Shown: piece by piece, positions 2,891 through 14,842 of the stretch | Position numbering within the stretch: position 1 is the first letter of the stretch | Layout of the letters: the number at the start of each line of letters is the position of its first letter | Origin: Nitrosopumilus sp. | GTDB taxonomy: Archaea > Thermoproteota > Nitrososphaeria > Nitrososphaerales > Nitrosopumilaceae | NCBI GenBank assembly: GCA_965205675.1 | Contig: OZ242186.1 | Coordinates: 1,888,001 to 1,952,000 of the forward strand | DNA: 64,000 nucleotides | Reading direction: 5' to 3' | The notes under the pieces: generated by a model | Database searches by the model: none | Seen by the model: only the letters and a program-made list of their open reading frames with translations | What the model was told of the DNA's origin: nothing | Made by a program: the position numbers and the translations under genes

Positions 2891-2973
2891 AGTTCCAAAT
2901 AGAATTAGCCGATTTAGTATGTTTTGGTAACTCAGAAAACGATTATTAGTTGAAGGCGATCAATAATCAAAAT

Positions 2974-4050
2974 ATGAGTAAAAAAAGAGTGGCAATAATT
3001 GGGGTTACTGGTTCTGTAGGTCAAGAATTTGTACAGTCTTTAAACAATCACCCATGGTTTGAAGTTACTCAAATTGCAGCATCTTCACGTTCTGCAGGAA
3101 AGAAATACCTTGATGCTATTAAAGATGCAAGTGGGATTGTAGCATGGGATGTAGGCGGAGAAATTCCAGAATATATCAAAGAAATGACAGTAAGATCAGT
3201 TGATGGATTAGATGTTTCTCAATTAGATGTGATATTTTCAGCAGTTGAATCAGAAGCAGCTAGAGACATAGAAACGAAGATGGCAGCAGATTTGCCAGTT
3301 ATCTCTACAAGTTCTGCTTATAGATATGAAGATGATGTACCAATACTAATTCCAGGGATTAATGATGAGCAAACAGAATTACTTGAAACTCAAAAAAAGA
3401 ATAGAAATTGGAAAGGTTGGGTAGCACCGTTACCAAATTGTACTACAACCGGTTTAGCAATTACATTAAAACCATTACTTGAAAAATATGGAGCAAAAAA
3501 AGTCATGATGACTTCAATGCAAGCAATATCAGGAGGTGGAAAAACAGGAGTGCCAGCAATGGGAATTACAGATAACATTATTCCATTTATTCCTAGCGAA
3601 GAAGGTAAAGTAAGACGAGAAACTAGGAAAATTTTAGGCAAATTAAAAGATGGGAAAATTGAAGATGCAGACATTAGAATCAGTTGTACTTGTACCAGAG
3701 TTCCTGTAATTGATGGACATACAGAATCAGTTTTTGTTGAAACTACAGAGAAAATTGATCCGTTAAAAGCAAAAGATACCTACAATGAATACAACAGAAA
3801 TATTTCAGTATCAGGATTACCATCAGCTCCTGAAAAATATTATGCATTTCATGAAGATCCAACTAGACCTCAACCAAGAATGGAGAGAACCGTTGGAGAT
3901 GGAATGACTACAACAATTGGAAGAGTAGAGACAGAAGAATTGTTTGATAATGGATTGAAATACATGTTGTTCTCTCACAATAAAAAAATGGGTTCAGCAA
4001 AAGGAGCTGTTTTGTTAGCAGAGATGCTATACAAGAAAGGCAAGATTTAG
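2974..4050 (+). CDS. asd: Aspartate-semialdehyde dehydrogenase
   Basis: GVTGSVG Rossmann motif, PNCTT catalytic Cys, QAISGGG, CTRVPVIDGH; ATG at 2974 preferred over upstream TTG. Confidence 0.9.
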   Translation: MSKKRVAIIGVTGSVGQEFVQSLNNHPWFEVTQIAASSRSAGKKYLDAIKDASGIVAWDVGGEIPEYIKEMTVRSVDGLDVSQLDVIFSAVESEAARDIETKMAADLPVISTSSAYRYEDDVPILIPGINDEQTELLETQKKNRNWKGWVAPLPNCTTTGLAITLKPLLEKYGAKKVMMTSMQAISGGGKTGVPAMGITDNIIPFIPSEEGKVRRETRKILGKLKDGKIEDADIRISCTCTRVPVIDGHTESVFVETTEKIDPLKAKDTYNEYNRNISVSGLPSAPEKYYAFHEDPTRPQPRMERTVGDGMTTTIGRVETEELFDNGLKYMLFSHNKKMGSAKGAVLLAEMLYKKGKI

Positions 4051-4140
4051 AGAATTTTTTTGCAATTTTTACAATAATAACTTTATAAGATCCAGAAATC
4101 TAGATCGACTCAGGTGTTTTAAACGATAAAAGTAGATGAC

Positions 4141-4590
4141 TTGGATTTACAAATTTTATCAGAATTATCTAATGATGCCTCAATATCAGTTCCTCGCTTA
4201 TCAAAAAAAATCAATGTTAACTCATCTGTAGTGTATTCCAGAATCAAACGACTAGTCAAAAGAAAACTAATTGAGCGTTTTACAATTGTAGTTAATGATG
4301 AAGAGCTCGGATACAATGTAAAAGCATTAACTGGGATTAACATGGATACAAAAAAACGAGACCACATTATTGAAGAATTATTCAAGATAGACGGAGTTAG
4401 AGAGGTAGCAGAAGTTACAGGGAGATTTGACATTCTAGTTACAATGTATTCAAAATCACTGGATCAGATGCATAAAATGGTCTCTGAACGGATTGGTAGA
4501 ATCGAAGGGATTCAATCTTCTGAATCATTCATAGAAATGAAATCACGAATGAAAGCAATGCCATATATGCCATCAAAGGATAGTGACTGA
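4141..4590 (+). CDS. Lrp/AsnC family transcriptional regulator
   Basis: D.QIL..L..DA HTH, V..RIKRL, VAEVTGRFD effector domain; true start may be ATA at 4126. Confidence 0.9.
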   Translation: MDLQILSELSNDASISVPRLSKKINVNSSVVYSRIKRLVKRKLIERFTIVVNDEELGYNVKALTGINMDTKKRDHIIEELFKIDGVREVAEVTGRFDILVTMYSKSLDQMHKMVSERIGRIEGIQSSESFIEMKSRMKAMPYMPSKDSD

Positions 4591-5522
4591 TGTTGCAAAA
4601 GCAAAAATCAGAATCTAGAATGGCAGTATATTATGAATTAACAAAACCAAAAATTTGGTATTTACTAGTTTTTACAGCATTTGGTGCAGCATTGACAGCT
4701 TCTAATGTTTACGGCATAGAAATATCTCCAGCAACATGGCTTTTGATGTTATTTTCAGTTGCAGCAGGTTCAGCCGCTGCAAATACTTTGACAAATTATC
4801 ATGATAGAGATATTGATGCAATTATGGAAAGAACAAAAGATCGACCTTTACCATCAAAAAGAATCTATCCTGCAGTAAAGGCAAGAAATTTTGGATTAGC
4901 ATTAGCAGGCATATCACTAGTTCTAGCATTTGGAATATCTTTTACTACAACGTTAGAACAAGGAGCATGGGCAACTGCATTTATTGCATTTGGATTAGTA
5001 AATAATATTCTAATTTACTCATATGTTCTAAAACGAAATTCAAGGACTAACATAATTTTAGGAGGATTGTGTGGAGGATCACCACCAATGATTGGATGGG
5101 TGGCAGTAAGTATGTCAGATTTATGGACAATGGGTCTTGCCATGGCAGGTTTGGTATTCATTTGGATTCCAATGCACATTTGGGCACTTACGTTACATTT
5201 CAAAGAAGATTATAACAAAGTCAATGTTCCTATGTTAACTGCAGTACAATCAGAAAAAACTTCTGCAAGAGCTATTGCATTATCAACAGTTGTAATGGTG
5301 TTATTTTCGATTGCTCCATTTTTTATTACAACTGAGAATAATGAAAAAATGATTGGAGATGTGTATTTATGGACTGCAATTGTATCTGGTGCATTAATGG
5401 TGGTATTATCAGTGTGGGTGATAGTCAAACCAATGGAGAAAGCTGCTTGGACATTGTTTAAATTTTCTAGTCCATATTTGACAGTGTTATTTATTGCACT
5501 AATGGTTGACTCTGCGTTATAA
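4590..5522 (+). CDS. cyoE: Protoheme IX farnesyltransferase (heme O synthase)
   Basis: YYELTKPKI, DRDIDAIMERTKDRPLPS, W.PMH.WAL, DY.KV.VPML; multiple TM helices. Confidence 0.93.
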   Translation: MLQKQKSESRMAVYYELTKPKIWYLLVFTAFGAALTASNVYGIEISPATWLLMLFSVAAGSAAANTLTNYHDRDIDAIMERTKDRPLPSKRIYPAVKARNFGLALAGISLVLAFGISFTTTLEQGAWATAFIAFGLVNNILIYSYVLKRNSRTNIILGGLCGGSPPMIGWVAVSMSDLWTMGLAMAGLVFIWIPMHIWALTLHFKEDYNKVNVPMLTAVQSEKTSARAIALSTVVMVLFSIAPFFITTENNEKMIGDVYLWTAIVSGALMVVLSVWVIVKPMEKAAWTLFKFSSPYLTVLFIALMVDSAL

Positions 5523-5750
5523 AATATTCCCTTTATCATCCAAACTATTCAATTCTTTAGTAATTTTAGAATGATCTTCTATCAATACTCCAAGTCCATT
5601 TTTTAGTTCTTCAGAATTCCAGTCAGATGAAATAAGAGATGTTAATTTTGAAACAATTTCCCATTGAATATTATTTTGATCATCAATTAATTTTAAAAAA
5701 TGCTTTCCCTTCTCTTCATCATTCATAATTTTTGGATATAATGGAATCAT
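5517..5750 (-). CDS. Small hypothetical helical protein
   Basis: 77-aa ORF (start possibly at MNDEEKG) with plausible composition, converging on cyoE. Confidence 0.55.
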   Translation of the reverse strand: MIPLYPKIMNDEEKGKHFLKLIDDQNNIQWEIVSKLTSLISSDWNSEELKNGLGVLIEDHSKITKELNSLDDKGNIL

Positions 5751-5816
5751 AAAAAGTTAGCATTGGTAATTAGATAATTTTAAAGTTTTATTAGTAGATA
5801 ATAGATATTTTTCATA

Positions 5817-5972
5817 TTGCAATGCAGTATTTCAGAATGCAAAGAAAAAGCAACAGAAACAGTCCAAATAAGTTTCAAGGAAACAAGAAATTTATGCAAA
5901 AATCACTTCAAATTATTTAAAAATAAAGATAGAAAACATAATCCAATGTTTTCTAAAGCATCAGATTTTTAG
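5817..5972 (+). CDS. Small putative zinc-finger protein (51 aa; not in ORF track)
   Basis: Read by eye from TTG: MQCSISECKEKATETVQISFKETRNLCKNHFKLFKNKDRKHNPMFSKASDF*; Cx4C...CxxH ligands. Confidence 0.6.
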   Translation: MQCSISECKEKATETVQISFKETRNLCKNHFKLFKNKDRKHNPMFSKASDF

Positions 5973-6040
5973 TATGTATAGGTGTTTTTTAACTAAAGAA
6001 TTATTGAAAGATTTAACATCTACTATTTTCAAATTAGAAT

Positions 6041-6511
6041 ATGGCAACCAAGAAGAAAAATACGCCTAAGAAAACAATAAAAAAATCAACTGCTAAACCC
6101 AAAAAACAAGTTAAGAGTTCATCAAAAAAACCAGAATTTGAAAAAGCATGGAAAGATTACAATTCAGCTTTGGATGGTTGGAAAGAATCTCTTGCACAAT
6201 GGCAAAAGGCTACTAATGAAACTTTAATGACATATCATGATGCTTGTCAAAAAGCAGTAGAATCAGATGCGGAACTGTTAAAAAAAGTTAGTTCAAGCTG
6301 GGAAAATACATGGGAAGAAATTGGTCCTCAATACATTAAACAACAAACAAAGATGATGGAAAATATCTTTAAAGAAACTAATATTGAATCAATTAAAAAA
6401 TTCAACAGTCAGTGGGAAAAATTTCTGAAAACATCTGGAAATGATTCAATTATAGCATATCAAGAAGCTATAAAAAAATTCAACCAAGCATGGCAATCAG
6501 GTCAAATGTAA
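6041..6511 (+). CDS. Hypothetical protein: Lys-rich N-tail plus Trp-periodic amphipathic helical domain (phasin-like?)
   Basis: About 30-aa K/T/S/P tail followed by a helical W-rich body that aligns by eye with ORF 12491-12904. Confidence 0.75.
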   Translation: MATKKKNTPKKTIKKSTAKPKKQVKSSSKKPEFEKAWKDYNSALDGWKESLAQWQKATNETLMTYHDACQKAVESDAELLKKVSSSWENTWEEIGPQYIKQQTKMMENIFKETNIESIKKFNSQWEKFLKTSGNDSIIAYQEAIKKFNQAWQSGQM

Positions 6512-6989
6512 TTATAGATATTTCTACATAACAAATTTAATTTTTTCATTTTTACTATTAAGAAAACTTTACACTCACATACTAAACAATTCCTTTAACT
6601 GCAGATCTTCTATTTTTCATGGTAGTTTCCATAGGATTTTTGATGGTTCTTTTGTATGTATCAAGCCTCACGTCTAGAATTTGTTTTTAGTTTCCATTTT
6701 TGTTCCTGATGGGATGGATGACCTTGATTCATACGTTCTTTTTGTTTTATACCTAACACAACACGCTTCTTGTGTAGGAGATTTTGAGATTCCAGTTTGA
6801 CATTTTATATGAATTATAAAGTTTGTTTTTAATAGGTTCTGTTAACCTGACAGGTGGTAATTCCTCGTGTTAAGTTTCGAGGGGTAATCTAACATCTTCA
6901 AGACTTGAAATGCGGGTAATAGGATTTGAGATTTACATGTAGGGCTTGAATCTCAGAAAGAAGACGTAGATTTTGCCACATGACTAGAA

Positions 6990-7150
6990 AATCTAGCTTT
7001 AACTGAAAAAATCATATTTTATTTGCTAAATTCAACAGGTATTGGTACTGGCAATCCATTATCATCTGTGGTAACATGTATTTTCATGCTTGTCATCTCT
7101 TTTAAATCCATCAAATTCATTTCTGCTTTAGTTTTACAGATGATTTCTAA
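6990..7150 (-). pseudogene. IS5-family transposase fragment
   Basis: Minus strand reads FDGFKR / frameshift / MTSMKIHVTTDDNGLPV, matching the IS5 K-I-H-x-x-x-D-x-x-G-L-P motif and the remnant at 15.9-16.3 kb; boundaries approximate. Confidence 0.6.
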
Positions 7151-7199
7151 GAAGCCGATGATTTTAATGGTTTTTTAGTTCGTAGATGTAAAGTAACAT

Positions 7200-8033
7200 A
7201 TGAACATTCAAGATTTTGGGATGGCTCCAAAAGATAACCCACTCTGCTATCCTGGCAAAAGACCTCCCCACTCTTTCTTGTTTTGTTCTGATGACATACT
7301 CTCAATTACGATGACTCCCAATGTCAAAATCGAAGATTGTATGGTAGATGATATTACGTTGGCAGAAAAACTTGAAGAATATGGCGCAAAGGGTATCTCA
7401 GACAGATATCTTGTGGTAGGGTATGGCTCTAATGCAAATCCTGCACAACTGCAAAACAAATTCAAGAATAATGTAAACAGTATTTTCCCAGTCTTCAAGG
7501 GAACCATTACGGGATATGACGTATCTTATGCAAGAGCATTTGCATCATACGGTGCAATCCCTGCAACTATAACTGATTCTCCAGGAACCGTTGTAGAGGT
7601 ATGGGCAAACTTGTTTGATGAAGAGCAGTTGGAGATTATGAACAAAACAGAGGGCAGAGGCACATCATACTGTCTTGGAAGATTAAACAGTGCATTAACG
7701 CTTGAAAATAATGAGATTTTTTCCTCTGCATGCTCCTACATACACATGCAGGGATCGTTGCCTGTCAACAGCAAACCAATCAGACTTGATATGATTAGTG
7801 CCATAAACGCAAAATTTGATGGGCTTGATCAGCCCCAGATACTCTCAAAAATATCTGAGATGTTTGGCTTGTCAACAACTCCTGAAGAGTTCTTATCTGA
7901 AATCAAATGTAAACGTCGTAATTATACTAAAAAACTCTGTAATCTCACAAAAGGCATTCCTACTATGGGATTCACAGAGATACCCAGAGATGGTAATCCT
8001 CCAAACATTACTGCAACCAAAAGATCTTTCTAA
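7200..8033 (+). CDS. Gamma-glutamylcyclotransferase (GGCT/AIG2)-like protein
   Basis: VVGYGSNANPAQL motif, YGAIPATI, and L..MNKTEG...Y with the conserved Glu. Confidence 0.65.
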   Translation: MNIQDFGMAPKDNPLCYPGKRPPHSFLFCSDDILSITMTPNVKIEDCMVDDITLAEKLEEYGAKGISDRYLVVGYGSNANPAQLQNKFKNNVNSIFPVFKGTITGYDVSYARAFASYGAIPATITDSPGTVVEVWANLFDEEQLEIMNKTEGRGTSYCLGRLNSALTLENNEIFSSACSYIHMQGSLPVNSKPIRLDMISAINAKFDGLDQPQILSKISEMFGLSTTPEEFLSEIKCKRRNYTKKLCNLTKGIPTMGFTEIPRDGNPPNITATKRSF

Positions 8034-8965
8034 AATCTATTATTAGATGTCTTATAATTGGATGCTGTAACCGTACTCCATACAACCCATAACATAAAAA
8101 ATATAGTCAAAGCCCAATAAATGATCTGTTCGGGATTTGATATTAGTGGAATCATAGTTACTGACAGAGCAACCATGCTAAATGAACCAAGATTGTTGAG
8201 TTTTTTCATAAACTCCCCCCGAAACGAACGTTTTATTTTCACAGGGTGACATTTCTTTATATTTAATTTTTCTCTGATCATAGAGTCCACAAATATGGGA
8301 TGAATGGAATTGCTATCCTTCCTCTCGCAGTTGCCTTCATCCATTTCAGAGTCTATTAATTCATCATGTCTTTGCTTCATTGAAGATGTAAGTGGCATGC
8401 ATTTTGCCTTGGTCTTTTCCTTATCTGAATCTTCTGCAGCGTCAATTGTTATTTCATCACCATATTCAGCATTAATCATGTTTAACATCTCTTCACATAT
8501 GCAAATAACAGGAATTTTTTGTTCCTTGTATATACTATTCTCATGAATTTGGACTATTGCATTTTGAAAATTTATCCTGTTTAGCATTTGTTCTTTGATT
8601 CTCCTTTTTGTTTTAGAACGGGTTATGTTGATTTCCTCACCCACGTCAACTGACAATGCTTCTCGGTATGTCTGGTCAAGACCCACTTCGTTTTTTTCTA
8701 AATGGTACTCTTTATTCACTGCTCCGTCTTTATCGCTAATTACAAGTGATCTAATCTTGAACGTACCTTTTTGTTCCTCACGCTGTTTTTTCTCCAAGAT
8801 GACATGATCATATTCTTTTATTTTCATCTCTTTCATCTGCTCTTTGTTCATAATTGTAACATAGTCTGGAAAGGGCTGTTCTTTGATAGAGCTTTTCTTT
8901 ACTGTACAACATATAGGTAACCCAGACTGTTTTTCAGAATTGTTCTTTCTCCTGAGCCAGGTCAA
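8030..8965 (-). CDS. Hypothetical protein with four psi-loop/GD-box-like repeats (putative tandem double-psi beta-barrels) and two C-terminal TM helices
   Basis: Repeats IMNKEQMKEMKIKEYDHVIL, VGLDQTYREALSVDVGEEINI, ICICEEMLNMINAEYGDEITI, IFVDSMIREKLNIKKCHPVKI; hydrophobic C-terminus. Confidence 0.55.
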   Translation of the reverse strand: MTWLRRKNNSEKQSGLPICCTVKKSSIKEQPFPDYVTIMNKEQMKEMKIKEYDHVILEKKQREEQKGTFKIRSLVISDKDGAVNKEYHLEKNEVGLDQTYREALSVDVGEEINITRSKTKRRIKEQMLNRINFQNAIVQIHENSIYKEQKIPVICICEEMLNMINAEYGDEITIDAAEDSDKEKTKAKCMPLTSSMKQRHDELIDSEMDEGNCERKDSNSIHPIFVDSMIREKLNIKKCHPVKIKRSFRGEFMKKLNNLGSFSMVALSVTMIPLISNPEQIIYWALTIFFMLWVVWSTVTASNYKTSNNRF

Positions 8966-9143
8966 TCTTTTACATTTTGATATGAGAGATAACTAGACAA
9001 ATGTACAATAAAATTCAGTGGATAGCTAATACGTCTTTACTATGTGTTGGTGGATAGTTAAAACACATCATATACTCGAGACATGGGCATAACTAATTCT
9101 AATTTTTGAGTCAATTCTCAAATTATTCAAATAGAAAAAGCTA

Positions 9144-10169
9144 TACCTCGGAGCATAATTCTTTGCAATTTTTCAAAACAAATAGCAATACTTTTTGATC
9201 AGTAGTTAGAAATAATTTCATGGACATCACAAATGACGAGTTACTCCAGGCCTACAAAAAAGAAAAGTACGGTAAGAAAAAGGAAAGACTGCATGCAATG
9301 TGTATTATTAAAATCAACGAATCCACAATTGCTGAAACTGCCAACCAAATGTTTTGTACCTACAATTCTGTAAGAAACTGGCTTGATTCATTTGAAAAAT
9401 ACGGACTAGAGGGCCTGGAGGACCTCCCTCGTTCTGGCCGTCCGCCATTAATCTGATACAATTCATATTTTACAGAACACGCATTACATATCATATCACT
9501 CACGTGCGTCGTTTGATGCATAAATGGAATCTAAAACCAAAGGTTCCACAAAAACTACATGTACGTGCCGCATCCAAGGATGTATGTCGCAAGTGGAAAA
9601 ACCGCATCATTTCACGCATAGAAAAGGCAAAAAAGAAAGGTTTTACAGTATTTATCCAAGACGAATCAGTATTTGTAGACGATGTACGTCTTGGCAAAAA
9701 ATACTGGACAGATGCACACCAAAGATTAATTGTGCATTGGAGAGGATCACATCAAAGATTTTTGGTTTATGGAATGATGACTGATGATAATCAAAGTTTT
9801 TTTAGATCGTATGAAAAATTTAATTCAATTGCATTTATAGATTATTTGGAAGCAGCTCGTAGAAAATTTGGAAAAATATTTGTTATCGTCGATAGAGCAC
9901 CGCAACACAAAGCTAATGATGTAAAAAAATATCTGCACAAAAACAAAGATGTCAAACTGGCATATCTTCCAAGAGGTTCTCCACATTTGAGTATGATTGA
10001 AGAGATTTGGAGGCAGTGCAAACATGTTAATGTTGAATCAGAATTTTATGAATCTATTCATGAAATGAGGCATACAGTTATGGAATATTTTAGAACCCAT
10101 AAATTTAATTTGAATATGTATCAGTATTTTGCAAGAACAGTAAATTGAAAAGACTTATGATCTGGGGTA
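9144..10169 (+). mobile_element. IS630-family insertion sequence
   Basis: Imperfect TIRs of about 28 bp (TACCTCGGAGCATAATTCTTTGCAATTT versus reverse complement TACCCCAGATCATAAGTCTTTTCAATTT), flanked by TA on both sides. Confidence 0.88.
9220..10148 (+). pseudogene. IS630 transposase split into two frames (HTH 9220-9456; DDE 9504-10148)
   Basis: GLEGLEDLPRSGRPP HTH end; FIQDES, VDRAPQH, SPHLSMIEEIW DDE triad; junction looks like an internal deletion with no slippery site seen. Confidence 0.85.
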
Positions 10170-10257
10170 TAAGGATCTTATCATGTTTTGTTCATTGTAA
10201 TGTCAAAACAAATGAAAATCCCTAGGCAAGATTCTATCGGAATCATTTCTTATTGGT

Positions 10258-11202
10258 ATGTTACATTTGGTGGGAATGTTGTCTTTGTATGAGGAGATAC
10301 TGAAACCCGGTAGACCGTACGTATACTCTACAATTCTGATGGTACAGCTGTTCATCATAAAGTCATGGATGAGAATTCCAAGCAACAATACATTACATTA
10401 TTTCCTTTCGACTAAAGGTACCAATGATAAATTGCTCAAGGTTTGCAGACTAACTCAAATTCCAAACAGAAGAACCATCGACAGGAGATTCCAAGTTCTG
10501 CCAATTGGTGATATAATCAGTAATATGGGAAGTCTGTTTGTATCAGAGAAACTAGTCGATGACATATCTGCATCAGTGGATAGTTCCATGCTAAAAGCAG
10601 ATGGTCCAGTATGGCACAAGTCAGATATGAAAAAGAATAGAATTCCAATCTCAGGAATTGACACAGATGCAAAATGGGGTTTTTCAAAATCAAAGGGTTG
10701 GGTATTTGGGTACAAACTGCATATGAGTTGTAGTACTGGCAAACTGGTTGTTCCACTATCTGCTGATGTCTCAACTGCAAATGTTTCTGATGGTAAAATG
10801 TATTATACAATAGTTGAATCGCTTTCAGGACTGGTTGAGAATATTTTATGTGATCCAGCATATGATGATAAATCATTATATCAGTTTAGTGATGAGAGAC
10901 ATTTGAGATTGATTTGTCCTATCAAAATATATCCATCAACACCACCAGAGCGAATCAAACTTGCAGATTTTTATAATTCTGTACAAGGTCAAGAGTTATA
11001 CTCACAAAGAAAAGTTTCAATTGAACCTTTATTTGAAATATTCAAAGATACGTTCAACATTAGAACTGTACATGTGAAAGGATTTGACAACGTGAAATCA
11101 TTTGTATTGGTTTGCGTGTTGGTGTATCAACTTGCAGTATATTACAATTGCATAACAAAAACAGAGAATCCAAGAATTGTGAAGAGAATGCTGTGTTGCT
11201 AG
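10258..11202 (+). CDS. DDE transposase (DDE_Tnp_1; IS5/IS982-like)
   Basis: GRP, SVDSS, DAKWG...GYKLH, TANVSD, CDPAYD, YSQRKVSIEPLF; upstream out-of-frame ATG at 10200 hints at a 5' frameshift. Confidence 0.88.
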   Translation: MLHLVGMLSLYEEILKPGRPYVYSTILMVQLFIIKSWMRIPSNNTLHYFLSTKGTNDKLLKVCRLTQIPNRRTIDRRFQVLPIGDIISNMGSLFVSEKLVDDISASVDSSMLKADGPVWHKSDMKKNRIPISGIDTDAKWGFSKSKGWVFGYKLHMSCSTGKLVVPLSADVSTANVSDGKMYYTIVESLSGLVENILCDPAYDDKSLYQFSDERHLRLICPIKIYPSTPPERIKLADFYNSVQGQELYSQRKVSIEPLFEIFKDTFNIRTVHVKGFDNVKSFVLVCVLVYQLAVYYNCITKTENPRIVKRMLCC

Positions 11203-11411
11203 AGCGATATTGGAAATTATTTTTGTAATTGATTATGCCCATGTCTCATATACTCAATAACAAAAATTCGTCACCCTATTTTGAACTCGATTTACGTACA
11301 TTGTAGATTCAAGTTTAAATTTCAGGAATTAGCATAATTTGAAAGATTTTGGGTCATGAATATTTGTTAGACAGTATAGAATTATAATTAACACAATATC
11401 ATTATAGATAA

Positions 11412-11792
11412 ATGGAGATATCTATCGAACCATGGAAAAAATTGATTATTCATGAGGTAATAGAGTACAAGTTTGAAGATTGGGTCATGCAAATTGCTTT
11501 TAGTACACGATCATCAGGAGGAGGAATTCCAACTATGCAATGGACTAATGGAATTGTTTTCTCACCAGCAAATTTTCCTACAACTAATTCTACAGTAGAA
11601 GAGCAATTGAAAGGTGTACTACATTGGTCATCAGTATCATTTGCAATTAAGGAGAAATTTGAAAAACAGATAGTCAAAGAAAATGCTACAATAAACTTAG
11701 TTGATGTTAGTGTAAATGAAATTTTCAAAGAGTTAGCTACCAGTTTAAGATCACAATCAAAATATACAGATTCAAAATCTGATAAATTCTAA
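11412..11792 (+). CDS. Hypothetical protein
   Basis: 126-aa ORF with host-like composition, coupled to the next ORF. Confidence 0.75.
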   Translation: MEISIEPWKKLIIHEVIEYKFEDWVMQIAFSTRSSGGGIPTMQWTNGIVFSPANFPTTNSTVEEQLKGVLHWSSVSFAIKEKFEKQIVKENATINLVDVSVNEIFKELATSLRSQSKYTDSKSDKF

Positions 11793-12469
11793 TGGATATT
11801 GAAGAAACAATAAAAAAATGTGAGATTTCTTTAAAACAAATTAAACAATATGATCCCGATCCATTTTATGTAAATCACTTTTTTAATGAATACATTAATT
11901 TACGAAATAATATAATTGTAGAAATTTTTGAGGAGGCAAATAGAGATTTTGGATTATTTTTATCAGAAAAGATTACTGAAAAAAACTTTTATGAGAAAGC
12001 AAAATTAAAGAATGATGAAAATGCTATAAAATTTTCAGAATGGTTTACAGTAAAATATAGTGAAGAGCATAAAAATCCATATCCAAATTTTATCAATTAC
12101 ATATGTAATTTTAGAAAAAAATTTGACAGATTACCTGAAATTAAAATTATGATTAGAGCTGTAGATAGATACAGAGAGGATTTTAATCAACAAATTAAAA
12201 TCGATTTAAGTCAAAAGAAATTACGATCTAAAGAAGAATTAAAAATTGAAATAAAAAGACAGTTACCAATATTTTTAGAAATTATCAATCATAAGAGACA
12301 TGAAAAAAATGAGCCAAGAGTTAATGGAAATCAAATTACAGCATCAGCATTTTTGGATAGTAAAAACGATAAAAATATGGAAATTGTTTATGCAGCAGAA
12401 ATTTACATTCCAGTAATGAAACGGTTAGTGGAGGAATCAAGAGAAAAAATTAAAGAGTTAACCAGATAG
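11792..12469 (+). CDS. Hypothetical protein
   Basis: 225-aa ORF; TAATG stop/start overlap with the previous gene. Confidence 0.75.
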   Translation: MDIEETIKKCEISLKQIKQYDPDPFYVNHFFNEYINLRNNIIVEIFEEANRDFGLFLSEKITEKNFYEKAKLKNDENAIKFSEWFTVKYSEEHKNPYPNFINYICNFRKKFDRLPEIKIMIRAVDRYREDFNQQIKIDLSQKKLRSKEELKIEIKRQLPIFLEIINHKRHEKNEPRVNGNQITASAFLDSKNDKNMEIVYAAEIYIPVMKRLVEESREKIKELTR

Positions 12470-12490
12470 TTTTCTCTCATTGTAAAAAAT

Positions 12491-12904
12491 TTATGATGAT
12501 TTTGGCCACATGGAGGCCCAAGTTTCAGCAAATTTTTTCATCATTTCGCCATAGACATTCATTTGTTCTAATCCAGATGAGCTAAGAGATTTTTGCCAAT
12601 TTTCAGTGAATTGCTTGAAAGCAGATGTGTTAGTATCATTGAGAGCTTTTTGCCAATTTTCGCCAAATTCTTTAAAAGAATTCATACCAACATCATTGAG
12701 AGCTTTTTGCCAATTTTCGCCAAACAATTTCATGGTTTCTACACTTGATTCAACATTTGCTTTATCCCAAACATCATTGAATTTTGATTGCATGTCTTTA
12801 CTTGCATTCTGAATTTGTTCAAAAAGAGATTTCCAGGTTTCAAGAGATTTTGTATATTCCTGCCACAATGAATCCCATTCATTATTTTTTGGTTGATCTG
12901 ACAT
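12491..12904 (-). CDS. Trp-periodic amphipathic helical repeat protein (phasin- or apolipoprotein-like?)
   Basis: Three 19-aa repeats of F(G/T)ENWQK(A/S)L; paralog of 6041-6511. Confidence 0.75.
   Translation of the reverse strand: MSDQPKNNEWDSLWQEYTKSLETWKSLFEQIQNASKDMQSKFNDVWDKANVESSVETMKLFGENWQKALNDVGMNSFKEFGENWQKALNDTNTSAFKQFTENWQKSLSSSGLEQMNVYGEMMKKFAETWASMWPKSS
12591..12724. repeat. Intragenic tandem repeat with 57-bp period
   Basis: ATCATTGAGAGCTTTTTGCCAATTTTCGCCAAA is identical at 12635-12667 and 12692-12724; partial third copy at 12591. Confidence 0.9.
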
Positions 12905-12958
12905 TAACTAAAGATAGTTGTCATTATTCTTAAGTACATCTATGAACAAAAAATAAAG

Positions 12959-13447
12959 TTATTTTTGACGATTTTTTAATCTGTTATCCATTCGAATTTT
13001 ACCTTCTTTGAATTTTATTCGATCATCATCTGTTTTTAGAGCTAATTTAGGAGCAGGTGTGGGTTTTCCATTTTCATCAAGAGTTATAAATGTCACAAAG
13101 GCGGTTCCAGTAACAGTTTTAATCCCAGTTACAATATCTTCAGCTTCTACTTTTACCTCTATCTCCATTGATGAATTATGAACATAATTTATTCTAGCAT
13201 TTAATGAAAGAACATTTCCAACAAAAACAGGTTTTAAAAAATTTACACTATCCATAGAAACAGTAACTGCATTAGATTGACAATGACGCTGAGCAACAAT
13301 TCCTGCCACCATATCAATATGTTTTAAAATTTCACCTCCAAATACATTACCTGCAGGATTTGCATCTGAAGGAAACATTCTAACAATTACTTTAGCGTGA
13401 GATTCAGAAGGACTTTTTTTTCGCATAGTGGGATTTTCTGATGACAT
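12959..13447 (-). CDS. Acyl-CoA thioesterase (hotdog fold)
   Basis: FPSDANPAGNVFGG.IL..ID, VTVSMDSVNFLKPV.VG, SSMEI. Confidence 0.9.
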   Translation of the reverse strand: MSSENPTMRKKSPSESHAKVIVRMFPSDANPAGNVFGGEILKHIDMVAGIVAQRHCQSNAVTVSMDSVNFLKPVFVGNVLSLNARINYVHNSSMEIEVKVEAEDIVTGIKTVTGTAFVTFITLDENGKPTPAPKLALKTDDDRIKFKEGKIRMDNRLKNRQK

Positions 13448-13504
13448 TTGTTATCTAATAATGGTTCTTAATTTATCCAATTTAATTTAATCAGTTGACT
13501 CAGG

Positions 13505-14842
13505 TTATTTGAAATATTTCTCTAGTTTAATTTTGTCAACTTTTGGGATTTTGGCTAATTCAAATCCTTCTGGACGTTTAGATAGAGACCGAGTTGCATC
13601 AATGCCCATTTTAGCAGTCTGTAATTTTTGTTGATTGCTTGAAGGATCCAAGCTAGAACCACGAATGTTTTTGAGAATAACTAGATCTTTGTCAGCTTGG
13701 AATCTTGTAGCCATAGCATATTCTACAGATTCTGCACTATTAGGATCAATATCTTCATCAACTACTGTAACTTGTTTTAATGAACGATGAGATTCGAATG
13801 TTTTTTTAATTATTTTTTTAGGATCTGAATCATTTTTCTTTTTAATTTGTACTACGGCATGTAACCAATTACAACCACCATTAGTCATTGAAACTTGTTT
13901 GGTTTGAGAAAAGGATTTTTTTAATTCTCCATTTAATTTAGATTCAACAGGCATTCCCATCAACAGTCTATGTTCTGAATATCCAGATAACACATCATGG
14001 AAAATAGGATTATTTCTGAAATAGAGATTTTCAAGCTCAAAGACAGGTTGAGATCTTTTATGATCATATGTCTGAAGCATCTCAACCATCCATTCAGGGT
14101 GGGTTTTGTCACGGAGAATTTTTCCCTCCATTACAATTTCTGCTCCGGATGGTACATTCAAACCAGAAAATGGTAATTTTGCCAAAGTTAGTTTTCCACC
14201 AAGAAGAGAATTTGCAATATCAATCTCATCTTTTCCCCAATCAGCTTGATATGCACCAGCAATCGATACTGCAGGATGAACACCTATAGTAATAGCAATT
14301 TTCAGATCTTCATCATGATCTTTTGCATCCATAAAACATCGATGGAGATGTCGTCCTTCAACCATTCTTATGGAAAAATGAGTTTTGTCAATTGGCATCA
14401 ATCTATGAAAAGAAGAATTTTGTTTTCCAGTTTCAGGATTTTTTGCATATGCAATAGAAGATGTGATAAAGGGACCAGATTCTTTTTCAAAATGAGTTAC
14501 TATAGGCATAGAAAGTAGGTTTTTTGATTTATTTTCCATGAATTTTCCAGAAGCAATAACTTTGGGTTTCTTGGCTTTTTTAATTGCGGAAATTATTTTT
14601 TTGTGAATATTAGATTCTGATCCACCAACTGCCATATCAAAACGTTTTCGAGTTCCAACTAAATTGGAGATTAATCTGAAATGACTTTCTTTAATTTTTT
14701 CAAATAATACAGCATGAGAACCATCAACTTTGGCGGTGATTCCAGCAATTTCATATTTTGTAGAGACAGACGATTTTATAGTTTTAAGTGCATTTGTTTT
14801 TTTGATTTGGGAAATGTAATTTCTTAAATCACTCATTCTCAA
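13505..14842 (-). CDS. ubiD: UbiD-family prFMN-dependent decarboxylase
   Basis: NSSFHRL, AEIVMEG, VVDEDIDP, A.ATRFQADKD, SSLDPS, KMGIDAT. Confidence 0.9.
   Translation of the reverse strand: MRMSDLRNYISQIKKTNALKTIKSSVSTKYEIAGITAKVDGSHAVLFEKIKESHFRLISNLVGTRKRFDMAVGGSESNIHKKIISAIKKAKKPKVIASGKFMENKSKNLLSMPIVTHFEKESGPFITSSIAYAKNPETGKQNSSFHRLMPIDKTHFSIRMVEGRHLHRCFMDAKDHDEDLKIAITIGVHPAVSIAGAYQADWGKDEIDIANSLLGGKLTLAKLPFSGLNVPSGAEIVMEGKILRDKTHPEWMVEMLQTYDHKRSQPVFELENLYFRNNPIFHDVLSGYSEHRLLMGMPVESKLNGELKKSFSQTKQVSMTNGGCNWLHAVVQIKKKNDSDPKKIIKKTFESHRSLKQVTVVDEDIDPNSAESVEYAMATRFQADKDLVILKNIRGSSLDPSSNQQKLQTAKMGIDATRSLSKRPEGFELAKIPKVDKIKLEKYFK

Follow-up and report, generated by a model that had tools for sequence, protein, structure and literature searches.

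A rare module of a GGCT-fold enzyme and a tandem-barrel protein, split on a mobile island of Nitrosopumilus and fused in other microbes

We describe here a pair of genes from the window, by which we mean the whole stretch of 64,000 nt that was analysed: positions 1,888,001-1,952,000 of the forward strand of contig OZ242186.1 in the Nitrosopumilus sp. assembly GCA_965205675.1 (G000:C1; the genome, G000, is one contig of 2.01 Mb). Gene 1 encodes an enzyme of the GGCT fold, while gene 2, which runs towards it on the other strand, encodes a protein with two double-psi beta-barrels (DPBBs) and a C-terminal hydrophobic hairpin. Together they form a rare, unstudied two-part module, which in other microbes is fused into one protein. 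It is very probable that gene 1 and gene 2 are functional partners, and we think it rather likely that they are the halves of one rare module, namely a split, membrane-tethered enzyme of the gamma-glutamyl-cyclotransferase type with a barrel adaptor. No description of the enzyme-barrel-hairpin architecture was found in the literature covered, subscription journals being outside that coverage. In what follows, the labels G, L and P denote the genomes, loci and proteins of this analysis, and residues are numbered on the window proteins.

The evidence which carries the link between the two genes comes from proteins in which they are no longer separate. Eleven proteins, from bacteria and one Asgard archaeon, consist of gene 1, gene 2 and the hairpin in one chain. 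Seven of them were recognised among the best 150 relatives of gene 1, as their C-terminal half matches a profile made from three gene-2-only sequences (E 1.8e-14 to 2.3e-6). Two further fusions, P0078 (E 2.1e-45) and P0053 (E 3.4e-19), match a profile which was built without them; the tenth, at L025, is a 614-aa gene of an Anaerolineaceae genome, and the eleventh, P0154 (644 aa), was reached from the gene-2 side. One of the fusions comes from a Promethearchaeota genome. Their order is constant: enzyme, linker, barrel 1, barrel 2 and two hydrophobic helices. In a rough family tree (FastTree, midpoint root) they fall at no fewer than six separate places, so the fusions are not one tight clade. 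Ten fusion clusters were looked up; all are singletons, and those which bear a name are called "hypothetical".

Where the two genes are separate, they are found side by side. In two KSB1 genomes gene 2 follows gene 1 on the same strand, with a gap of 3 nt in one of them and an overlap of 5 nt in the other (both distances being counted on stop-to-stop frames). Of 401 genomes of the window's class, 6 have gene 1 and 3 have gene 2 (G000, G283 and G304), the latter each time convergent to gene 1, and gene 2 was met in 1 of 401 Chloroflexota and in 3 of 167 KSB1 genomes. Every gene-2 relative with enough flanking DNA is adjacent or fused to a gene-1 relative; this tally leaves out L075, P0005 and P0006, whose contigs are too short, as well as a weak, stop-ridden match in G931 (E 8e-4). 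A metagenome search with gene 2 gave two loci, of which L075 is a 1.6-kb contig without a visible neighbour and L076 is identical in sequence to L065. In the other direction the rule fails, as most of the roughly 2000 clusters of the gene-1 family stand alone, and gene 2 was not found within the fetched flanks at 50 of 54 genome loci of that family.

The initial annotation had proposed a functional link between the two genes, and had named as a refutation the case of homologs which never co-occur or fuse. The eleven fusions and the adjacent pairs contradict that case; together, the fusions, the two same-strand pairs and the three convergent pairs support the link. It had also held that the pair is not one operon. 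This is right for the present lineage, where the genes are convergent, but not for the KSB1 pairs, which share a strand, nor for the fusions elsewhere. That the two genes were brought together by chance, without any functional link, would agree with their convergent arrangement and the lack of a shared promoter here. Against it stand the fusions and pairs across phyla, and the fact that no gene-2 relative which can be judged lacks gene 1. Chance juxtaposition is thus extremely improbable and, because fusions exist, we take it as excluded. From the fusions, therefore, follows the firm prediction that the products of gene 1 and gene 2 act jointly at the membrane.

We now turn to gene 1. Its AF2 model, built from six sequences, has a predicted local distance difference test score (pLDDT) of 93.7 and a predicted template modelling score of 0.91. 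When this model was searched with Foldseek, the best matches in the Protein Data Bank (PDB) were human GGCT structures (3cry and 2i5t; probability 1.00, E 3e-5), followed by ChaC2, plant AIG2-like proteins, YkqA and GGACT. In the VIA comparison, the model superposes on human GGCT 2i5t with Z 9.0 and a root-mean-square deviation (rmsd) of 2.9 A over 129 residues, and the first unrelated entry (Z 2.9) comes after 23 of the GGCT fold. The alignment of the two YGSN loops and of Glu151 with Glu98 was taken from a PDB profile search at a non-significant E of 0.35. Both Y75-G76-S77-N78 and E151 are invariant in the six close homologs.

A word-index search for gene 1 gave two relatives; an exhaustive profile search gave 2011 cluster representatives at E ≤ 1e-3, of which 1340 at E ≤ 1e-10 and 218 at E ≤ 1e-30. 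Family motif counts refer to the best 150 of these 2011 representatives. Among them E151 is conserved in 150, G76 in 149, K87 in 149, N78 in 148 and S77 in 143. Because of these 2011 representatives and of the conservation of E151, G76, N78, S77 and K87, we assign gene 1 to a large branch of the GGCT fold which, judged by its sequences, has its catalytic residues intact and carries N- and C-terminal extensions of its own. The N-terminal extension comprises 66 residues with an invariant YPG...P..S motif, and the C-terminal one is helical. Hence the GGCT fold, the YGSN motif, the conserved glutamate and the terminal extensions with their YPG, all of which had been read from the sequence at the outset, are borne out by the AF2 model, Foldseek, VIA and the counts over 150 representatives, the extension motif Y17-P18 being present in 114 of these. 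Curated sequence models catch this branch marginally: against the cut-off of 22.8 bits of the Pfam family GGACT (PF06094), the relatives P0040, P0136 and P0003 score 26.4, 23.8 and 21.6 bits. Gene 1 is a member of the GGCT-fold superfamily, with its motifs, which lies outside the curated sequence models.

GGCT-fold enzymes have been known as soluble enzymes of the breakdown of glutathione and of gamma-glutamyl amines. Gene 1 is like them in its fold, with Z 9.0 to human GGCT (GGCT/C7orf24; PDB 2i5t, 2pn7, 2rbh and 3cry), 7.3-7.5 to GGACT and 6.6-6.7 to ChaC2, and it shares with GGCT, GGACT and ChaC the YGS(N) loop and the acid/base glutamate at equivalent positions. It differs from them by an identity of 13-17%, by its two extensions and by a dedicated membrane partner. 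A published account describes a YGSL motif and a catalytic glutamate as common to GGCT-fold enzymes, the glutamate being Glu98 in GGCT, Glu82 in GGACT and Glu116 in yeast ChaC (PMC7022552). The two-domain protein YkqA of B. subtilis (PDB 2qik), a GGCT-fold domain with an added domain, also resembles gene 1 (Z 8.6, rmsd 3.2 A, 129 residues), although only the GGCT-fold part is matched (residues 67-219 of the model and 126-278 of the chain). We know of no barrel or membrane partner of YkqA.

Several lines of evidence point to barrels in gene 2. Pfam CDC48_N (PF02359) matches its residues 38-116 with E 3.9e-4 and 21.0 bits, below the cut-off of 35.1 bits, and the fusion P0043 comes closer (E 6.6e-8, 33.1 bits), also below it. 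PDB profile matches of gene 2 are to designed DPBB proteins derived from VCP-like ATPases (E 0.016). One gene-2 homolog has precomputed CDC48_N and Molydop_binding domains, and Molydop_binding is a double-psi barrel as well. The AF2 model of gene 2, made from three sequences, is of low confidence (pLDDT 51.2); the first 12 Foldseek matches obtained with it are all DPBB or p97-N domains. In VIA, barrel 1 superposes on the DPBB of the Cdc48/p97 N-domain with Z 7.0-7.1 (rmsd 2.4-2.8 A, 66-68 residues), and barrel 2 does so on 7du6 with Z 8.0 (rmsd 2.4 A, 79 of 86 residues) and on the VCP-like DPBB 7dg7 with Z 7.4. The nearest entries to gene 2 in the ESM Atlas are hypothetical proteins of Bacillota (0.93); one cluster has CDC48_N on 11% of its members.

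The two barrels also resemble each other, since hhalign relates residues 30-120 to residues 148-250 with a probability of 91% (E 9.4e-7, 75 columns). A DPBB fold for gene 2, as claimed in the initial annotation, thus finds support for both halves from Foldseek, VIA and hhalign, with a model whose pLDDT is 51.2. Of the four repeat units claimed, units 2 and 4 (95%) and units 3 and 4 (79%) are alike, and unit 1 is weakly similar to the others (32-38%). G169-D170 is nearly invariant, while D97, R101, D227 and L234 are invariant (D97 and R101 in all 14 sequences aligned). The motifs D-Q-T-x-R and D-x-x-x-R occupy the same place in both barrels, and we regard the D-x-x-x-R motifs of both barrels as candidate ligand sites.

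At the C-terminal end, the gene-2 model has two helices, 248-276 and 281-309. The mean Kyte-Doolittle hydropathy is 1.94 at residues 281-300; the segment around 259-277 is hydrophobic yet stays below the 1.6 cut-off in the window protein, whereas both segments exceed this cut-off in P0005, in P0006 and in nine of nine fusions scanned. The model helices, the hydropathy and the segments of the homologs all bear out the two C-terminal hydrophobic helices which had been proposed. Gene 2 has neither an N-terminal hydrophobic segment nor a signal peptide, so that it would be tail-anchored, with cytoplasmic barrels. We corrected the annotated start of gene 2. The version of the gene caller (P0004, 273 aa, start M39) lacks some 20 conserved residues, among them those of the first strand of barrel 1; as the homologs align from residue ~17-22 onwards, this call removes conserved sequence.

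Cdc48/p97 uses such barrels to grip cofactors and substrates. Residues 136-248 of gene 2 are like the N barrel of Cdc48/p97/VAT (PDB 7dg7, 7dbo and 7dg9; Z 7.3-8.0, rmsd 2.3-2.5 A, 74-79 of ~86 residues). The differences are that gene 2 is without AAA+ ATPase domains (none in Pfam/NCBIfam) and without the beta-clam subdomain, and that it has traits of its own, namely tandem barrels followed by a membrane hairpin and a D-Q-T-x-R / D-x-x-x-R motif. As it lacks the ATPase, gene 2 is not a Cdc48-family protein. There is also a weak likeness to barrels of the AbrB/MazE/SpoVT type, known from antitoxins and transition-state regulators, since residues 153-183 match the NCBIfam model "doc_partner" with E 1.7e-4 and 21.9 bits against a cut-off of 55.9 bits. 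Swapped-hairpin barrels of the AbrB type and DPBBs are grouped together as cradle-loop barrels. We considered a toxin-antitoxin pair of the AbrB/MazE type and rejected it: the score is far below the cut-off, the genes are convergent here, and a protein which is predicted to sit in the membrane and which elsewhere forms one chain with the enzyme does not fit such a pair.

We can now word the mechanism which we think rather likely. Gene 1 would cleave a gamma-glutamyl amide or isopeptide bond by cyclisation, and the products would be 5-oxoproline and a free amine, as from GGCT, GGACT and ChaC. The tail of gene 2 would anchor that protein in the membrane with the barrels on the cytoplasmic face, and gene 2 would act as an adaptor which holds the enzyme at the membrane, or presents a peptide or protein substrate by way of its D-x-x-x-R sites, or does both. 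A role of gene 2 as an accessory targeting or regulatory subunit fits, because the partner is optional for the enzyme family and has never been seen without the enzyme. We favour membrane targeting as the common theme, because all nine barrel fusions scanned end in two hydrophobic helices and because two close relatives of gene 1 are joined to other hydrophobic parts, P0034 to a polytopic membrane domain and P0033 to a tail with one hydrophobic segment.

A number of observations weigh against this picture of a membrane-tethered enzyme with its adaptor. Gene 1 matches no family in Pfam (E ≤ 1) or in NCBIfam (E ≤ 0.1), the Pfam families of the GGCT type, such as GGACT and AIG2_2, included. As for gene 2, because of the low pLDDT of its model, the predicted barrels lean on several weak lines which agree and on no single strong one; its adaptor role and its topology are what we infer. 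In five genomes with a stand-alone, N-terminally extended gene-1 relative, gene 2 was found in none, so the enzyme can be independent of its partner. In the window itself, since gene 1 and gene 2 are convergent, they are transcribed separately. Finally the module decays in the relatives of the window genome. Two stops interrupt the gene-2 match of G283, and the longest frame left open there (252 aa) breaks off within the first anchor helix. The gene-2 copy of G304 has lost an internal stretch, so that barrel 1 is followed directly by the last helix (188 aa). No gene 2 was detected in G066 or G036, and gene 1 of G171 is a pseudogene. A complex prediction for gene 1 with residues 25-255 of gene 2, made without controls, gave a score of 0.00 (mark 0.32) and counts neither for nor against the partnership.

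This decay deserves attention in its own right. Among the carriers in Nitrosopumilaceae, both genes are intact only in the window genome. One may then ask whether the pair is the leftover cargo of a degraded mobile element, either inactive or with only gene 1 still at work. The debris of insertion sequences (ISs) on both sides and the duplicate of the gene 2 5' end elsewhere in the genome speak for it, together with the fact that gene 2 is broken or missing in four other Nitrosopumilaceae with an intact gene 1 and that gene 1 is broken in a fifth. Such a relic is nevertheless very doubtful, as both frames of the window are intact and of full length and all conserved motifs are kept.

The same facts can be read in terms of conflict or defence, where the enzyme would produce, break down or detect a gamma-glutamyl compound and the protein of barrels and two helices would be an effector which damages the membrane when triggered. 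The patchy and very rare distribution counted above agrees with this, and so do the fast decay of the copies and the finding that all fusion clusters looked up are singletons. In Nitrosopumilaceae the copies sit on variable islands, with IS elements and, in G283, G304 and G036, with actin-like genes; G283 also has a type I restriction-modification gene in which methylase and specificity domains are fused, and G304 a CRISPR array of 12 repeats. In addition, one enzyme domain is joined to varied C-terminal modules (barrels with the hairpin, a polytopic membrane domain, a soluble domain), as in defence systems. On the other hand, PADLOC-DB 2.0 gave no match for the two window proteins (E ≤ 1) or for 11 relatives, fusions and neighbours (E ≤ 0.01); of 22 pattern matches on viral contigs none was confirmed as a relative; and BFVD shows generic viral GGCT/AIG2-like proteins only. 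Both KSB1 loci are without defence-gene neighbours, stand-alone relatives lie in housekeeping neighbourhoods, near glutamate-cysteine ligase at about 20 of 54 loci, and the catalytic residues show the conservation known from metabolic GGCT enzymes. The initial annotation had imagined a gamma-glutamyl or pyroglutamate signal perceived by a membrane effector in an antiviral or stress role; with none of 13 proteins matched in PADLOC, no viral relatives and mixed genomic contexts, this is unsupported. We judge a defence module unlikely, and keep it as a minority possibility because the loci of Nitrosopumilaceae look mobile and island-like. A broader form of the idea is that of a membrane conflict or stress system common to Asgard archaea, Thaumarchaeota and several bacterial phyla, in which the enzyme would strip a gamma-glutamyl mark either from the barrels or from a peptide or protein which they hold, and so gate a membrane-perturbing tail, the variable C-terminal modules being alternative effectors; to this we give still less credence. 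Signalling is the remaining alternative: the anchored barrels would sense a ligand or the state of the membrane, and the enzyme would convert this into a change of a gamma-glutamyl metabolite feeding a regulatory circuit. In one KSB1 genome, G880, the pair is indeed flanked by a histidine kinase and a sigma-54-dependent response regulator, but this was seen at one locus only, such neighbours are lacking at the other KSB1 locus and at the archaeal ones, and the Pfam/NCBIfam scans detected no known sensor domain, all of which makes a signalling accessory very unlikely.

The positions of the two genes, of their domains and motifs and of the surrounding repeats are collected in the table.

Table. 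Features of the module and of the island around it, in window coordinates
Feature	Position (nt)	Strand	Remarks
Gene 1	7200-8033	+	277 aa, ATG start; GGCT-fold enzyme with N- and C-terminal extensions
Y17-P18-G19, N-terminal extension of gene 1	7248-7256	+	Invariant in 6/6 close homologs; Y-P in 114/150 representatives
GGCT-fold region of gene 1, residues 67-238	7398-7913	+	Model aligned to human GGCT, GGACT, ChaC2 and YkqA
Y75-G76-S77-N78 substrate-binding loop of gene 1	7422-7433	+	Aligned to human GGCT YGSN 22-25
Glu151 of gene 1, predicted catalytic acid/base	7650-7652	+	Aligned to human GGCT Glu98 (counted from the alignment)
Gene 2	8030-8965	-	311 aa from a TTG start; two predicted DPBB barrels and C-terminal helical hairpin
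C-terminal hydrophobic hairpin of gene 2, residues 255-303	8057-8203	-	Predicted two-pass membrane anchor
Barrel 2 of gene 2, residues 136-248	8222-8560	-	D227...R231 motif at 8273-8287; VIA Z 8.0
Barrel 1 of gene 2, residues 33-119	8609-8869	-	D97-Q-T-x-R101 motif at 8663-8677; VIA Z 7.0-7.1
81-nt repeat, miniature-transposon-like, left island edge	6654-6734		6 further genome matches, 93-99% identity; collinearity with G101 stops at 6653
Repeat immediately upstream of gene 1	6922-7159		95% identical copy at G000:C1:179902-180136
Segment with gene 2 5' end and upstream region	8880-9073		95% identical copy at G000:C1:1247129-1247321
IS5-like element, in two parts	9078-9143 and 10170-11256	+	Pfam DDE_Tnp_1; copies elsewhere join both parts without a gap
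IS630-like element, nested in the IS5-like element	9142-10171	+	Pfam HTH_29 and DDE_3, split frames; ~30 genome copies
130-nt repeat, right island edge	11249-11380		17 further genome matches; collinearity with G101 resumes at 11376

The stop codons of gene 1 (TAA) and of gene 2 (TAG) share 4 nt, tail-to-tail; a check of the open reading frames (ORFs) reproduced the positions and the 4-bp overlap first given for them. The flanking genes have a G+C content of 0.29-0.32 and the whole window one of 0.316, whereas gene 1 reaches 0.394 and gene 2 0.349. The excess of the pair over its surroundings is modest and real, and the pair is indeed less AT-rich than the flanking genes, as had been remarked. 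For positions 7100-9000 no RNA data set is listed, and DNA of this region occurs in three sequencing runs of one study.

The pair sits on an island of 4.7 kb, filled with ISs, which is absent from the closest relative, G101. This relative is collinear with positions 2900-6653 and 11376-13999 of the window at 80-87% identity, and the distance between these flanks is about 1.3 kb in G101, as against 4.7 kb in the window. The only part of the island which is unique in the genome is 7160-8880, the remainder being made of repeats; when cassette ends were sought around this part, nothing was found beyond short matches at chance level. The gene beside the distant copy of the repeat upstream of gene 1 we take to be an IS110-type transposase. 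The ORF of the IS5-like element is intact (314 aa), while the frame of the IS630-like element nested in it is split. The repeat map, the IS content and the comparison with G101 thus agree with the eroded island of the initial annotation.

The window genome, which is of the Nitrosopumilus type, is unusually rich in insertion sequences; in addition to the IS630-like copies counted in the table, at least a dozen full or partial IS5-like copies are present. The 194-nt copy of the gene 2 5' end lies 650 kb away, next to an ORF for a coiled-coil protein of 447 aa. Its locus matches residues 1-37 of gene 2 at 76%, and no other part of the module is found there; the copy may be the remnant of a second copy of the module or of a recombination event. 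Two small proteins rich in Trp and Lys, of like composition, flank the island (6041-6511 on the + strand and 12491-12904 on the - strand). The second of them has an obvious internal repeat, ENWQKxL, which occurs 3-4 times. Both are core genes found in relatives.

The genomic contexts of the other copies are varied. In G283 a PNPOx-like gene, a gene of the class-I glutamine amidotransferase/peptidase C26 type and an IS630 copy lie between gene 1 and gene 2. The PNPOx-like and C26 genes (L016 9060-10015) are a single occurrence, and a 769-aa gene in which HSDR_N, N6_Mtase and Methylase_S are fused lies just upstream. C26 is the family of gamma-glutamyl hydrolases, and this neighbour may be relevant to gamma-glutamyl chemistry. 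In G304 (L017 8219-9068) a CRISPR-like array with 12 repeats of about 37 nt, spaced by 72-75 nt, is found some 80 nt upstream of the truncated gene 2, with actin-like and metalloprotease genes nearby. Actin-like genes of the ALP/MreB type are present within a few kb of gene 1 at L016 13603-14469 (G283), L017 5943-6896 (G304) and L019 8550-9428 (G036); none was found in the window island. Actin-like genes of this kind segregate plasmids, and their presence near gene 1 in three other Nitrosopumilaceae genomes suggests that an integrated plasmid-like element carries the module from place to place.

Outside the archaea, the same-strand pair of KSB1 G880 (L085 6396-11098) is placed between a histidine kinase with HisKA and HATPase_c and the sigma-54-dependent response regulator, and the neighbours at the other KSB1 locus are a DoxX membrane protein and a phosphodiesterase. 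A search for a glutamate-adding ligase of the RimK type close to the module gave nothing in G000, G283, G304, G414 and G880, and none was seen at the KSB1 and Anaerolineaceae loci. A large alphaproteobacterial branch of the gene-1 family, which is without the N-terminal extension, has a conserved housekeeping neighbourhood; at L047 5875-9754 the order is PmbA/TldD, the gene-1 homolog, UbiA, RsmE and the glutamate-cysteine ligase GCS2. The cluster with glutamate-cysteine ligase is found at about 20 of the 54 loci. This conserved block with UbiA, RsmE and GCS2 hints that the alphaproteobacterial branch acts in the turnover of glutathione or gamma-Glu-Cys.

The enzyme domain also occurs with modules other than the barrels. 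In P0034 it is joined to a polytopic membrane domain (~540 aa, with about 14 hydrophobic segments), in P0033 to a helical tail with one hydrophobic segment and in P0031 to a soluble domain of about 190 aa, while P0061 and P0003 add to it unassigned N-terminal regions of 430 aa and 130 aa. The added parts of these five proteins gave no Pfam match at the cut-offs used; what matches there were are a marginal GGACT one on the enzyme part of P0003 and some at chance level on P0033 and P0003. In G036 the neighbour convergent to gene 1 encodes 423 aa, to which the soluble C-terminal domain of P0031 shows no similarity, and P0031 outside its GGCT part has no sequence match in the PDB. The idea that this domain and the G036 neighbour are nucleases is accordingly unsupported.

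What emerges is, first of all, a large GGCT-fold branch, with 2011 cluster representatives at E ≤ 1e-3 and a YP motif in 114 of the best 150, for which no curated model matches the window protein. Within it, one rare sub-branch has as its dedicated partner a membrane protein made of two barrels of the Cdc48/p97 type. Should the module prove to be a defence system, it would be of a new type. If its substrate is a gamma-glutamylated peptide, protein or lipid-linked compound, the module would belong to an unrecognised cycle of modification in archaea and bacteria.

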